Shown: piece after piece, positions 43,250-48,465 of the stretch | Position numbering within the stretch: the stretch's first letter is position 1 | Layout of the letters: each line of letters opens with the position of its first letter | Assembly: GCA_965205975.1 (NCBI GenBank) | Contig: OZ242195.1 | Location: forward strand, 64,001 to 128,000 | Reading direction: 5' to 3' | Length of the DNA: 64,000 nt | DNA from: Candidatus Latescibacterota bacterium | GTDB lineage: Bacteria > Latescibacterota > UBA2968 | Program-made: the position numbers and the translations under genes | The notes under the pieces: generated by a model | Databases searched by the model: none | Told to the model about the DNA's origin: nothing | What the model saw: only the letters and a program-made list of their open reading frames with translations

Positions 43250-45064
43250 ATGAACAGAAAATTGGGAACGCTTAAAGAATTGCTGAATGCACGCGTGGTT
43301 GATGAACTGAAGAAGTTGGCGCGGTTGTTGACGGGGGCGAAACTTCCCACGCGCAAGGCGGAGATTATCGCCGTTATTGTGCGCGAGATGATGGAGTACA
43401 CGCGCGATTATTGGGATATGCTGGATGACCTGCAGCAAAAATCCGTAGCAGAAGCACTTTATGCGCCGTGGTTTGACAAAGAGGGATTTGTTGCCAAATA
43501 TGGCGAGGATCCAGATTGGGGCGAGATGTCCTCCTGGTCCTCATATTCTAATGAGCCTTCGCTGCTCAACCTGTTTATTCTTAGTGGTGATAGCTATGAT
43601 TTTTCCCGTGGTCAAAAGGTCGTACCCGATGATTTGAAAGTCATCCTCAAAAAATTTGTGCCCAAACCGACGCCTGCAAAATTGGATGTGGAAACAGAAC
43701 GCCCGGAAATTGCAAAAATTATTCGCCATAATTTTTGGACGGAGAAAAATAGGGTTAAAAAGATTCCGCTTTATCACGCCGATACCGAGCAGACAGCACA
43801 GGAAGACCTGATGTCTGTATTGCGACTGATTGAGGCAGGCAAAGTGGGTCTGACGGAGAAGACCAGACGGCCAACAGCGGCCAGTCTTCGCGCGATTAGC
43901 GGTGTTCTTTGGGGTGGTGATTTTTATCCAGACCGCGAAAAGCGCAATGAATGGGAAGAATTGCCGGGACCGATTAAGGCACATGCCTGGCCGCTGCTCA
44001 TTCACACAGCAAACCTGGCACGGTTGCAGAGCGGCAAATTGCAGTTGACCTCCGCGGGGCGAAAGGCGTTGACCGCGCCCCTTCACGAGACCATTAAGGT
44101 GCTGTGGCAGGCGTGGCTCAAAAATGCAAAGACAGATGAAATGCAACGGGTAAGTGCCATTCGCGGGCAAACTGGACGGGGAAAACCGGGCATGACTTCT
44201 CCGGTAAAGCGGCGTGCAGTAATTGTCAAAGCACTCAGAGCATGCCCTATCGAAAAGTGGTTTGGTTTTGATGCCTTTTGCAATTTTATGCGTGCGGCGG
44301 GCTATTGGGTAATTGTGTCGGATGAGCCGTGGGAACTTTATATCGGCGATTATAGCTATGGGCATTTGTCCGACGATGACTGGGCTTTGCTGACGTCTCG
44401 CTATACGATGGTATTGCTTTTTGAATATGCCGCAACATTGGGGCTTGTAGATGTGGCCTATATCGATCCGGCGGATGCGCCCTTAGATGTAGGTTCCGCG
44501 CGAGATCTTGCGTTTTTGAGTCGCTATGATGGGTTGATGTATTTGCGTATCAATGCGTTGGGGGCTTTCTGTTTGGGGCGGAAGCGATCTTATACGTCTT
44601 CGGAAGTAGAGATTGAACAGGTACTCAAAGTGCTGCCCAATTTCGATGTGGTCGCATTCAAGCCCCTGCCGTCGGGCGATCAAATTGCGCTGGAACAATT
44701 CGCGGAGAAGACTGCTGACAACGTGTGGAAGATTCGGCCCGAACAGATGCTCAAAGGTCTGGAGAGCGGTCAATCGCTCGATCACATGCGGTCATTTTTG
44801 AAGCACAAAAGCGGCGAGGAGTTGCCACATCCTGTGGCCGTGCTTTTCGACGATATAGCCGATAAAGTACCGCGTTTGCGGGCGAAAGGCACAGCGCATT
44901 TGATTGAGGTGACAGATGTTGAGACCGCACAGTTTCTCGCGCATGATCGAGGTGTAAGCAAATACTGCTATCTGGCTGGTGATCGCCAACTTGTCGTGCC
45001 GGAAAAATCTCTGACAGCATTTCGCAACGCATTGAGAAAAGTTGGATATATATTGCCGAAGTAA
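43250..45064 (+). CDS. Helicase-associated (XPB N-terminal / Helicase_C_3-like) domain protein
   Basis: C-terminal LKVLPNFDVV...LEQFAE...WKI...FL...SGEELPHPV pattern; N-terminal RKAEII motif; no Walker motifs. Confidence 0.65.
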   Translation: MNRKLGTLKELLNARVVDELKKLARLLTGAKLPTRKAEIIAVIVREMMEYTRDYWDMLDDLQQKSVAEALYAPWFDKEGFVAKYGEDPDWGEMSSWSSYSNEPSLLNLFILSGDSYDFSRGQKVVPDDLKVILKKFVPKPTPAKLDVETERPEIAKIIRHNFWTEKNRVKKIPLYHADTEQTAQEDLMSVLRLIEAGKVGLTEKTRRPTAASLRAISGVLWGGDFYPDREKRNEWEELPGPIKAHAWPLLIHTANLARLQSGKLQLTSAGRKALTAPLHETIKVLWQAWLKNAKTDEMQRVSAIRGQTGRGKPGMTSPVKRRAVIVKALRACPIEKWFGFDAFCNFMRAAGYWVIVSDEPWELYIGDYSYGHLSDDDWALLTSRYTMVLLFEYAATLGLVDVAYIDPADAPLDVGSARDLAFLSRYDGLMYLRINALGAFCLGRKRSYTSSEVEIEQVLKVLPNFDVVAFKPLPSGDQIALEQFAEKTADNVWKIRPEQMLKGLESGQSLDHMRSFLKHKSGEELPHPVAVLFDDIADKVPRLRAKGTAHLIEVTDVETAQFLAHDRGVSKYCYLAGDRQLVVPEKSLTAFRNALRKVGYILPK

Positions 45065-45085: not shown

Positions 45086-46123
45086 ATGAACACGACATTT
45101 CCAGGAGCAGAATGGGAGACGAGACCGCCCGGTGACTTGGGCTTTGACGAGGATAAACTCGCGCGGGTGCAGAGGTGGTTGCGCGAGGTGGCGGGTGACA
45201 AGCCCTTTCAGGTGGGGATTGCGCGTTATGGGTATCTTACGGCAGAGTGGCGGCAAGGTGTTGTGGCTGATTCTTCGCACTCACAGGCGTCTGCCGCTAA
45301 GTCGTATTATTCGACGCTTCTGGGTATTATAGTGGCCGAGGGGAAACTATCTTCGCCGGATGAGAGGGTCGTTGATTATTTTCCAGAGATGATGGATGTG
45401 GGCGAGCAGGAAGGCCCAAAACCCGGGCGGTATGCGTTTGAGAAAGATCGCGATATTACGTTTCGGCATTTGATATGCAATGTGTCGGGCTATATGAAAC
45501 CGGGGGAAAAACCGGGGGAGGTTTTTCACTATCAGACTTATGGGATGAATATTCTGACCCACGCAATGGCTAAAATTTACGGGTGTTACGATGCGAATGA
45601 TCCCGAGAATTCGCCGGGATGTGGGAAGGTGATCGAAGAAAAAGTGCGCGATCCAATTGGTGGGACCTGGACGCATTCGCATTCCAATTTCGATCTGTGG
45701 CCCAGTGCGCGGTTAAATATCTTTGGGTATTACACGCAGGTGCATACCACATTGCGAGATCAGTTGCGGGTGGGGCATTTGTGGGCAAATTACGGCAATT
45801 GGAATGGGGTTCAGGTTGCCCCCGAGAGTTATTTAAAAGAAGCAACCGTAACAAATGACTTTATTCTGGAAAACGAACCCGAGGAGAATTGGAAATACGG
45901 GCACGGATTCTGGTGCAATGATCGTGGGATGCAGTGGAAAGATGCACCGAGAGACTCTTTTGCTGCATCGGGTGCTGGTGCGAAGCATATCTGGATGTGT
46001 CCGCGGTTGGGTCTGGTTATCGCGCAAAATCCAGGGCTGTGGGATCAGTTCAGGGAAGAGCAGGATAAAATCGGGAGCCAGAATGAAGTGATTGCGCGAG
46101 TTGTGAATGCGGTAAAGGAATAG
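45086..46123 (+). CDS. Beta-lactamase-fold serine hydrolase (class C/NylB-like)
   Basis: SAAKS (SxxK), ITFRHL, PGEVFHY, YGHGFW, FAASG. Confidence 0.85.
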   Translation: MNTTFPGAEWETRPPGDLGFDEDKLARVQRWLREVAGDKPFQVGIARYGYLTAEWRQGVVADSSHSQASAAKSYYSTLLGIIVAEGKLSSPDERVVDYFPEMMDVGEQEGPKPGRYAFEKDRDITFRHLICNVSGYMKPGEKPGEVFHYQTYGMNILTHAMAKIYGCYDANDPENSPGCGKVIEEKVRDPIGGTWTHSHSNFDLWPSARLNIFGYYTQVHTTLRDQLRVGHLWANYGNWNGVQVAPESYLKEATVTNDFILENEPEENWKYGHGFWCNDRGMQWKDAPRDSFAASGAGAKHIWMCPRLGLVIAQNPGLWDQFREEQDKIGSQNEVIARVVNAVKE

Positions 46124-46136
46124 GGAGGAGCTAAAG

Positions 46137-47459
46137 ATGAATGCAAAAACCAAAAAATCGCAGGTGGATCAGGCTGTGAAATCGCAATCGCGGCGGGCGT
46201 TTAAGCTGTCGCGGAGTATTCACGGCTGGGCAGAGCGGCCGTTTCGGGAATACGAGTCGTCAAAGGCATTGGCGGCGTATTTGGAGGAGAACGGATTTCA
46301 AATTGAATTTCCGTGGAAAAATATCCCGACGGCTTTTCGCGCCACCTGGGGCACGGGCAAACCCACTATTGGTATGTTGGGGGAGTACGACGCATTGCCC
46401 AATTGCGGTGCCGAGGAGGGCACCTGGGGCCACGGCTGAGGTCATAATCTTTTGGGCGTTGCCCCGGCCGCAGGTGCGGTTGCTGCAAAGGCAGTATTGG
46501 AAAATTTGAAATCGTCCGGTCAGATCATTTATTACGGCTGCCCGGCTGAAGAGACGCTGGCGGGCAAGGTGTATATGGCCCGCGATGGCGCGTTTCGAGA
46601 TTTGGATGCGGTGCTGGCATGGCATCCGGGATCGAGTACGGGTGTTAGCAATTATGGCGGTTCGTCACTGGATTCGCTGGTGTATGAGTTTTTTGGCAAG
46701 ACGTCTCACGGCGCGAGTGCCCACAATGGGCGCAGTGCATTGGATGGGGTGATGTTGATGGATGTTGCGGCGAATTATTTGCGCGAACACGTTCCCGAAA
46801 ATGTGCGTATCCACTGCGTGATACGAGATGGTGGGGATGCGCCCAATGTGGTTCCGGCTTATGCAAAGGTGTGGTATTATGTGCGGGGGAAGGATCGTGA
46901 ACAGGTGAATAAAATACGCAAGCGATTGACCAAATGCGCCAAAGGTGCGGCAATGGCTACGGAAACGACTATGAAATGGCATCGTATCACGGCTGTGTAC
47001 CCGCGTTTGCCCAATGATGTGATGTGCGAAACTGTGCGTCAAAATCTCGAATTATTCGGTCCACCTCGTGCGTCAAAAAAAGATAAGGAACGCGTAAAGG
47101 AATTGGGATATAAAGGTGAATTTGACGGGAAGATCAAAAAGGGGAAGGGTTCACAGGGACGCGGGTCTTCAGATGAAGACAATGTGTCGTGGCTGGCACC
47201 GATGGGTCGGTTTCAGATGGTGTGTTATACAAAGGGCACGCCGGGTCATCACCGCGATATGACCGCACAAGCAATAATGCCTTATGCCGAGCGCGCGGTT
47301 TTGCAAACGGCCAAGGTGTTTGCGGGATCGGCTATTGATCTGATTTTGGACAAAAAGGTGTTGCAAGCAGCGCGTGCGGAATTTGTGAAGGGAACGAAGG
47401 GGTTTGAGTACGATCCGCTGATTCCGAAACGTCAGAAGGTCCCCGTGGATCCTCCATAG
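46137..47459 (+). CDS. M20D/AbgB-like amidohydrolase with in-frame TGA at codon 101 (candidate selenocysteine)
   Basis: ORFs 46137-46439 and 46452-47459 are in one frame; junction reads GEYDALP...WGHG-TGA-GHNLLG; downstream GCPAEE, AWHP, GRSALD, PNVVP intact. Confidence 0.85.
46456..46492 (+). promoter_or_regulatory. Candidate bacterial SECIS hairpin
   Basis: Upper stem CGGCCGC/GCGGTTG (46465-71/46476-82) with loop AGGT 32 nt after the TGA; lower stem TTGC/GCAA. Confidence 0.6.
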
Positions 47460-47472
47460 AAGGAGAAAAGAT

Positions 47473-48465
47473 TTGAAAGCACAAAGATTAATATGCACAG
47501 ATGTCCGGCGGATTGAATTGGAGGACTTTGATTTGTCGCGTGTGCCAGATAATGGCATTTTGGTGCAGAATGATTATACCGCCATGAGCGTTGGTACGGA
47601 AATCTACAATTATGCTTATGGCGGTGAACCGTCGCGTGCGAGGACATTTCCTCGGCCAACGGGGTATTGCAATACGGGTGTGGTGCTCGAGGTGGGCAAA
47701 GATGTGAAGGGGGTGGAACCCGGTGATCGCATTGCCGCGCAGGGCAATCACGCCAGTCATGCGGTCATGAGTGGGAATTTTTTTAGAGTGCCCGAAGGTG
47801 TTTCGCCCAGGTCTGCTGCTTTTATGGTTATGTGTGCTATTGCCATGCACGGGCATCGGGTTGGATGTCCGGAATTGGGTGAGGTTGTTGCAATTACTGG
47901 GATGGGTATTGTAGGCCAGTTGACAGCGACCTTTGCGCGGTTGGCTGGCGCGCTCCCGGTTATTGCGATTGATCTGGATGATTTTCGGTTGGGTAAAGCG
48001 AGAGACAGGGGCGCAGATGTTTGTGTCAATCCCGGTACTGCAGGGGATGTCGCCGAAGCCGTGCGCGAGCATTGCGTGGGCGATGGTGTCGATCTGGTTA
48101 TTGAAGCGACGGGTATTCCCGCAGTTTATCCCCTGGCGTTGACTTTGCCTCGATTGGGTGGCCGTCTGGTCGCGCTGGGGTCTCCGCGCGGTACTGTGGA
48201 GGTGAGTTTTTTGCCCGAGGTTCACTTGCGGGAGATTACTATTCTGGGCGCGCATCAGCCCAAGACGCCGGATGATGACCATATTTATTATCCGTGGAGC
48301 AAGCGCAGAGATCGCGAACTGATTTTGCGTTTGATGGCCGCGGGCAAGTTGCCCATTGAGGATCTGATTACCCATGTCGCCAATCCCGCCGATTGCCAGA
48401 CTACCTACGACATGCTCGCCGATGATCCGAGAGAAGTGCTGGGTGTGGTATTTGAGTGGACTTGA
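47473..48465 (+). CDS. MDR-family (zinc-binding-type) alcohol dehydrogenase
   Basis: TTG start after AGGAG; SVGTE, GYCNTGVV.EVG, GMGIVG, IEATG. Confidence 0.88.
   Translation: MKAQRLICTDVRRIELEDFDLSRVPDNGILVQNDYTAMSVGTEIYNYAYGGEPSRARTFPRPTGYCNTGVVLEVGKDVKGVEPGDRIAAQGNHASHAVMSGNFFRVPEGVSPRSAAFMVMCAIAMHGHRVGCPELGEVVAITGMGIVGQLTATFARLAGALPVIAIDLDDFRLGKARDRGADVCVNPGTAGDVAEAVREHCVGDGVDLVIEATGIPAVYPLALTLPRLGGRLVALGSPRGTVEVSFLPEVHLREITILGAHQPKTPDDDHIYYPWSKRRDRELILRLMAAGKLPIEDLITHVANPADCQTTYDMLADDPREVLGVVFEWT

Follow-up and report, generated by a model that had tools for sequence, protein, structure and literature searches.

The amidohydrolase gene examined here lies in the window, a 64,000-nucleotide stretch of the genome of an uncultured marine bacterium, Candidatus Latescibacterota (contig OZ242195.1), and is interrupted by one in-frame TGA. 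This raises the question of whether the codon marks a broken gene, a true stop between two cistrons or a selenocysteine (Sec) codon at the metal site of a hydrolase. The genome is a single contig of 5.56 Mb and is 98% complete. The open reading frame runs from the ATG at 46137 to the TAG at 47459, and its translation contains no internal stop other than the TGA, found in the context WGHG*GHNLLG. Conventional ORF listing cuts the gene into pieces of 100 aa and 335 aa. The elements at this locus are as follows.

46137..47459, plus strand: M20D amidohydrolase gene of the HmrA/PM20D2 type, 440 codons with TGA101 read through.
46124..46128, plus strand: Shine-Dalgarno-like GGAGG, 8 nt 5' of the ATG.
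46437..46439, plus strand: in-frame TGA, codon 101, predicted by alignment to homologues to encode Sec at the Cys of H-x-C-G-H.

The upstream stop codon and the ATG are separated by 13 nt, as are the TAG and the next start. The joined 440-aa frame, the GGAGG ribosome binding site and the tight operon placement described in a sequence-only reading of this DNA were all borne out.

In a profile search, the read-through protein scored 197.3 bits against TIGR01891 (cut-off 153.75). The earlier assignment to M20D is supported, with one refinement. Among solved structures, HmrA (3RAM, E 1e-41) comes nearest in sequence, together with human PM20D2 (7YH4, E 1e-36), rather than the AbgB-type chain 3IO1. 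JGI labels relatives of the gene AbgB. The recurrent annotated neighbours at the loci examined are dehydrogenases, dipeptidases and a sulfatase. The proposed position of the TGA at the M20D H-x-C-G-H Cys is correct, as it aligns with the Cys of HACGHN in both 3RAM and 7YH4. HmrA and PM20D2 share the motifs EYDALP, HxCGHN, PAEE, HP and PNVVP with the window protein; they carry Cys, whereas the window gene has a TGA with a SECIS-like hairpin and lies in a different gene neighbourhood. Two further M20D paralogues in the genome, at about 406900-407800 and 5274150-5275100 (both minus strand), keep Cys, in HACGHN and HACGHD.

Support for the TGA was also obtained from assembled run contigs. A 397-nt contig of run X1, which may be the source sample itself, covers 46205-46601 at a depth of 95 with no differences from the window. 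Contigs of X15, an RNA run, span the gene at 3–10% divergence; the RNA runs X15-X20 hold small shares and are represented by contigs only. Sponge and marine metagenomes are among the runs holding a quarter of the words. The exact X1 match argues against an assembly error, and recurrence in other genomes argues against chance: 39 of 41 related genomes matched, all 39 with a single TGA, and 55 genomes of the phylum carry it. The internal TGA is thus genuine.

In a survey of 168 genomes of the phylum, 80 matched at 83 places. Exactly one TGA was present at each of the 55 places with at least 71% identity, which belong to three families, and the H-G-TGA-G-H pattern lies inside each of these 55 genes. 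The other 28 places were stop-free in 27 instances and had a TAG in one. A distant homologue at G046:C295:3287-4459 (L162; 34%) has one internal TAG. A metagenome scan with the pattern returned 37 loci, comprising 32 further copies (71–96%), four non-homologous sequences and one distant gene (L149). Across the 64 distinct full-length TGA genes of the clade there is no second internal stop, and codon 101 is TGA in 64/64, as compared to Cys in 24/24 homologues outside the clade (at least 44% identity). The TGA is therefore common to dozens of genomes and not private to this assembly.

Selection was assessed from dN/dS relative to the window gene, which ranged from 0.04–0.11 after the TGA and 0.08–0.36 before it in 18 unsaturated pairs, distant pairs being saturated. 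Both halves are under purifying selection; relaxed selection downstream, which would have spoken for decay, was not observed. Silent sites immediately past the TGA are also constrained, as a test of four-fold sites located one further element.

46452..46484, plus strand: codons 106-116, in which silent sites are nearly frozen; contains the SECIS-like element.

Four-fold-site heterozygosity was 0.115 at the 10 sites of codons 106-116 versus 0.590 at 172 sites elsewhere, a difference reached in 0/5000 shuffles. The test used 31 TGA genes below 90% nucleotide identity, and these codons were chosen post hoc, with each shuffle scored by its own lowest window. The Cys control over the same codons was at background level, from 3 usable sites only.

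These data bear on the possibility that the TGA is a nonsense change in a dead gene or a sequencing error. A single change converts TGC to TGA, and a real nonsense allele at this codon does exist in L149 (1186-2622), a gut-type, AbgB-like gene. L149 was considered as a third Sec lineage and rejected: its 247-member cluster, 99% identical, is full-length with a Cys representative. Its TGA is most likely a private nonsense allele, and it serves as an example of what such a change at codon 101 looks like, a lone allele in a full-length, near-identical cluster. The window TGA is instead fixed in three families down to 71% identity, in 64 genes without another stop or frameshift, with strong purifying selection and frozen silent sites directly downstream, and the X1 contig matches it exactly. 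The shared TGA, the dN/dS values and the 64 intact genes refute a pseudogene or sequencing error, to which we assign practically no probability.

Alternatively, the TGA could be a true stop, with chains of 100 aa and 335 or 294 aa made separately and then assembled. Databases do give the downstream piece as a protein of 335, 320 or 294 aa, a TTG lies four codons past the TGA, and the frozen silent sites could mask a re-initiation signal. However, that TTG is CTG in many members, and the internal starts lack a Shine-Dalgarno sequence. All three stop codons occur at the true ends of the genes (TAG, TAA and TGA), but the internal stop is TGA in 64/64, without a single TAA or TAG. A split would also lose the invariant Cys and His103 between the pieces. 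Translation as two chains is accordingly extremely unlikely.

A SECIS-like hairpin, which the sequence-only reading did not mention, has been identified within the constrained codons.

46465..46482, plus strand: SECIS-like hairpin with a 7-bp stem and a 4-nt loop, AGGU (46472-46475), the loop starting 32 nt past the UGA.

The hairpin has an energy of about -10 kcal/mol. Its stem is paired in 307/308 cells across 44 distinct TGA sequences, with one pair varying among G-C, G-U and A-U. None of the 24 Cys homologues retains the stem. According to a 2026 review, the bSECIS model has a loop of 3–9 nt, a stem of 4–16 bp, a G in the first two loop positions, a distance of 16–37 nt from the UGA and an energy of at most -7.5 kcal/mol (PMC13188914). 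The window hairpin lies within all of these limits and fits a candidate SECIS. Covariation in the stem is thin, with two-sided change in 1/7 pairs, five pairs that never vary, 9/500 shuffles matching the score and an equally high score when the stem is slid by +3. When the 64 nt that begin at the UGA were folded as a single sequence, their energy did not stand out from that of shuffled versions (z -0.34). Loose SECIS criteria, moreover, were satisfied by 590 of 38,285 TGA contexts genome-wide (1.5%), so the hairpin alone proves little. The case for a SECIS rests on the silent-site constraint together with the restriction of the hairpin to TGA genes.

With a strict GGT-loop filter, 42 rows remained of 31,140 contexts, and of these just selD and the amidohydrolase look like genes. 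Neither the loose nor the strict filter can serve as a scan for the selenoproteome. The best 110 of 199 candidates from a dicodon scan were mainly adjoining genes, with two redox selenogenes among them. A short palindromic repeat, probably REP-like, occurred four times in the hairpin scan (e.g. 12905, 229497, 3857168, 4786217).

The genes for Sec synthesis and insertion, named earlier as a check, are all present above cut-off: selA (582 bits), selB (388 bits), selD (371 bits) and tRNA-Sec (70 bits). selA adjoins selB, and selD, which itself carries one in-frame TGA, adjoins tRNA-Sec(UCA). The Sec-containing selD occupies 3425281-3426440 (minus strand), followed by tRNA-Sec, and has a GGU-loop hairpin 20 nt past its UGA. 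Two genes of known selenoprotein kinds also have an in-frame TGA: an AhpC/TSA-family gene with UxxC at 1533545-1534093 (minus strand; L160) and a BCP-type peroxiredoxin gene with TxxU at 4715970-4716407 (minus strand; L161).

The TGA form was found only in genomes with Sec machinery. selA is present in 131 of the 168 phylum genomes. Among the 55 TGA genomes, selA was found in 54; the remaining one, G013, is in 430 contigs and encodes tRNA-Sec together with a partial selB that lies at the edge of a contig. The 68%-identity orthologue of G154 (86% complete) has Cys. G154 has no selA, selB or tRNA-Sec above cut-off, and its congener G155 has neither selA nor an above-cut-off selB. Because the genomes are kin and incomplete, this linkage of TGA with selA counts as one contrast and not as a statistic.

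Decoding of UGA as Cys or Trp occurs in some lineages. An altered code or a Cys-charged tRNA(UCA) could likewise have UGA read here as Cys, Trp or Ser, and Cys would be the simplest way to retain the chemistry of the family. Several features of the genome speak against this. TGA is the ordinary terminator of many genes, and the only UCA anticodon among 49 tRNA genes belongs to the tRNA-Sec beside selD. All 8 Trp codons of the amidohydrolase gene are TGG, and TGA lies outside the two commonest codons in every Trp column. The classical TGA genes have the codon at redox Cys positions (selD, AhpC/TSA UxxC, BCP TxxU). A reading as another amino acid is therefore very unlikely. Taken with the integrity and conservation of the gene, the machinery and the fold, we infer that UGA101 is recoded, and these sequence comparisons make its reading as Sec nearly certain.

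The structural setting of codon 101 was analyzed using an AlphaFold model built from a 102-sequence alignment, with position 101 as Cys and no metals. The model has a pLDDT of 95.4, and the catalytic and dimerisation domain fold is present, with a PF07687 match in the sequence. HmrA (3RAM) and PM20D2, a beta-alanyl-lysine / Xaa-Arg dipeptidase (7YH4, 8ZEI), are the best fold matches (TM 0.82, rmsd about 2.0 Å for HmrA, and TM 0.79) at 26% identity, a level at which substrate is not transferable. The YxeP / ILL2 / 4EWT / CsAga branch (MHACGHD) is also M20D, with 17–20% structural identity to the window protein, and all of its solved members considered here have Cys. In CsAga, a Cys bridges two zinc ions (PMC11511702). 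At the position of this M20D feature, a Cys bridging both metals, the codon is here TGA, and Sec is predicted instead.

Ten residues, E83, D85, H99, H103, E138, E139, H163, H191, H226 and H371, are invariant in the 64 TGA genes and 24 Cys homologues. E138, E139 and H163, which the sequence-only reading listed as intact in this gene, are thus conserved in both forms. From M20D structures, we take H103, E139, H163 and H371 to be metal ligands and E138 to be the base, with H191, N237 and R250 presumably binding substrate. Apart from the bridging Cys, the present data support these expected roles through invariance.

46443..46445, plus strand: His103, expected metal ligand.
46548..46553, plus strand: Glu138, expected general base, and Glu139, expected metal ligand.
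46623..46625, plus strand: His163, expected metal ligand.
47247..47249, plus strand: His371, expected metal ligand, aligned with GHTH of HmrA.

In the mechanism proposed, SelB and Sec-tRNA would bind the hairpin 32 nt downstream, UGA101 would be decoded as Sec and the 440-aa M20D enzyme would be produced. Sec101 would replace the Cys that bridges two divalent metals (Zn or Mn), the other ligands being H103, E139, H163 and H371. By homology, E138 would act as the general base and a metal-bound hydroxide would attack an amide beside a free carboxylate. The exchange would be a drop-in swap of selenolate for thiolate at the bridge, with hydrolysis unchanged. This reading as a whole, an intact gene with UGA101 decoded as Sec through SelB and the hairpin and the Sec bridging metals in an M20D hydrolase, is highly probable. 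Of the earlier proposal that Sec101 is a selenolate ligand in a hydrolase, the Sec portion is now supported, and the bridging role is drawn by analogy; given Sec101, a working hydrolase with Sec as the bridge between its metals is likely.

The history of the TGA form was followed in a 108-row tree. Its 30 TGA representatives cluster together (SH-aLRT 91, unstarred), and the cluster is embedded among Cys forms of Planctomycetota, Verrucomicrobiota and further taxa. Nested in the TGA group are five Cys proteins known from databases, with 71–83% identity. They are protein records in which U may have been written as C, and their sources give TGA genes as 335-aa fragments. The nesting is suggestive of about three reversions from Sec to Cys within the group.

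A second TGA lineage was found in Planctomycetota. The pattern H-[GA]-TGA-G-H-[ND] gave 28 matches in 401 genomes of that phylum, 7 of them YxeP-type M20D genes (MHA*GHD) and 21 not M20. Two more YxeP-type genes among 81 relatives of G507 brought the total to nine.

L170, L172-L176, L190, L225, L227: YxeP-type TGA genes, in genomes G212, G492, G507, G297, G417, G534, G264, G1014 and G1007.

The encoded proteins have about 25–31% identity to the window protein or its paralogues' branch, and the best solved match of the lineage is YxeP (1YSJ, E 1.5e-80). selA is present in 9/9 of the genomes. Eight of the nine genes are otherwise intact; the gene of G297 ends early at a second TGA. All nine have a 6–10-bp stem with its loop 24 nt past the codon, as compared to 0–2 bp in 23/23 Cys relatives, at a position that was read off the TGA genes. 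Compensatory changes are clear in this stem, and its loop is of the [GA]GU type. Searches of two further phyla yielded no TGA-M20 gene: the pattern had 0 matches in the 33 genomes from the phylum that includes G171, and none of its 25 matches in the 401 genomes from that of G170 was M20. The YxeP-type lineage is under-sampled, because the metagenome pattern could not match its motif.

In a joint 43-row tree, a very long branch separates the two lineages, which were never grouped (0% of 200 bootstrap trees; root not inferred). The TGA label needs eight changes, seven of them forced by starred branches, and at several points a TGA gene is sister to a Cys gene. selA is present in the three Planctomycetota Cys genomes tested, so the switch between Sec and Cys there does not stem from loss of the machinery. 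Together with the nested Cys versions, these genomes indicate that Sec is not essential. The different position and sequence of the two hairpins, and Cys in all solved relatives, favour separate recruitment of Sec in the two lineages. We consider it fairly probable that a bridging selenolate in a purely hydrolytic dinuclear centre was gained at least twice in M20D, in the HmrA/PM20D2 type of Latescibacterota and the YxeP type of Planctomycetota, that the SECIS elements of the two are separate, and that Sec and Cys have replaced one another repeatedly.

The neighbouring genes were examined in 92 TGA locus records, duplicates included, with flanks of 1.5–4 kb. In the window, the gene is flanked as follows.

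45086..46123, plus strand: upstream gene for a beta-lactamase-fold serine hydrolase (PF00144), seen in 16 locus records, mainly of the window's genus.
47473..48465, plus strand: downstream gene for a medium-chain dehydrogenase of the Zn-binding family (PF00107), the best-conserved gene beside TGA-form loci.

Medium-chain dehydrogenase genes neighbour the TGA gene in 56/92 records, isopropylmalate/tartrate-family dehydrogenase genes in 34, isoaspartyl dipeptidase genes in 8 and M19 dipeptidase genes in 6; none of these four was present at the Cys-form loci examined. Within the genus of the window, the upstream dehydrogenase has given way to another gene, and elsewhere the genome has only a 33% homologue. 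A longer and probably older operon is present at L073:86-5323 and L068:44-6345. Its products are an unannotated, repeat-like protein of 455 aa, an isoaspartyl dipeptidase, a dehydrogenase of the isopropylmalate/tartrate family, the amidohydrolase of the TGA gene and a medium-chain dehydrogenase. A 604-aa gene at 43250-45064 (plus strand), with a weak C-terminal Helicase_C_3 match, lies upstream in some strains and is replaced by other genes elsewhere, marking a variable operon slot. The neighbourhood hints at peptide or amide catabolism. The enzyme is likely to act as a carboxy(di)peptidase or to hydrolyse N-acyl-amino acids, in an operon for the breakdown of peptides or amides.

A selenoprotein in which Sec serves as a redox or selenium-sensing switch, with the enzyme made only when selenium is available, or takes part in a non-hydrolytic reaction, would be compatible with the reading of UGA101 as Sec. 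Most characterised selenoproteins are redox enzymes, as the review states (PMC13188914), and the conserved neighbours are two dehydrogenases. On the other hand, the expected ligands and catalytic residues are invariant in the Sec and Cys forms alike, and the invariant columns show no resolving Cys that the Sec form alone would have. Sec and Cys forms also interleave on the trees, as expected of a drop-in ligand swap. A switch or a non-hydrolytic role is thus unlikely. The selenolate is probably retained for its role as a ligand, fully ionised and tolerant of oxidation, and not as a redox centre.

The sequence-only reading had held that characterised bacterial selenoproteins are overwhelmingly redox enzymes. 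This holds for most, but Sec metal ligands and a few predicted non-redox families were already known. According to the review, Sec takes the place of a metal-binding Cys in FdhA (Mo/W) and NiFeSe hydrogenases, and predicted non-redox families include UshA-like proteins, a glutamine-amidotransferase related to CTP synthase (GxUxG) and the MerB-like SaoL (PMC13188914). FdhA and the hydrogenases are redox centres, whereas the present site would be a dinuclear Lewis-acid hydrolytic centre with Sec at the metal bridge. The three non-redox families resemble the window protein as hydrolase or lyase folds with Sec, but their folds are unrelated and none is an M20 peptidase. What would be new is a dinuclear hydrolase in which Sec occupies the bridge.

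No M20 or amidohydrolase family appears among the 119 prokaryotic selenoprotein families in the 2026 review (PMC13188914), nor did a term search find an M20/amidohydrolase selenoprotein in the main text and four supplements of deep-Sep (PMC12013277), in the main text of BSepDB, whose family lists may have been covered incompletely (PMC13326102), or in SelCysML (PMC13745706). Among the papers listed by full-text searches of the open literature, none concerned a Sec-containing M20 enzyme, and NCBIfam 20.0 selenoprotein models match neither TGA lineage. The gene represents a well-supported candidate selenoprotein family.

If true, this finding would add a family missing from the 119-family catalogue. 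It would also correct database records in which the gene product stands as a 335-aa fragment under the name 'peptidase dimerization domain protein' (one cluster of 217 sequences). Catalytic and protective advantages explain the use of Sec incompletely, as noted in the review (PMC13188914), and nearly all test cases for its benefit are redox enzymes. A Sec hydrolase with Cys relatives at 70–83% identity, and with close Sec/Cys sister pairs in a second lineage, would make the question testable without redox turnover, by comparing metal affinity, metal choice, oxygen tolerance and kcat. If the convergent gain is also true, the two lineages would provide natural matched pairs for the value of selenium without redox chemistry.
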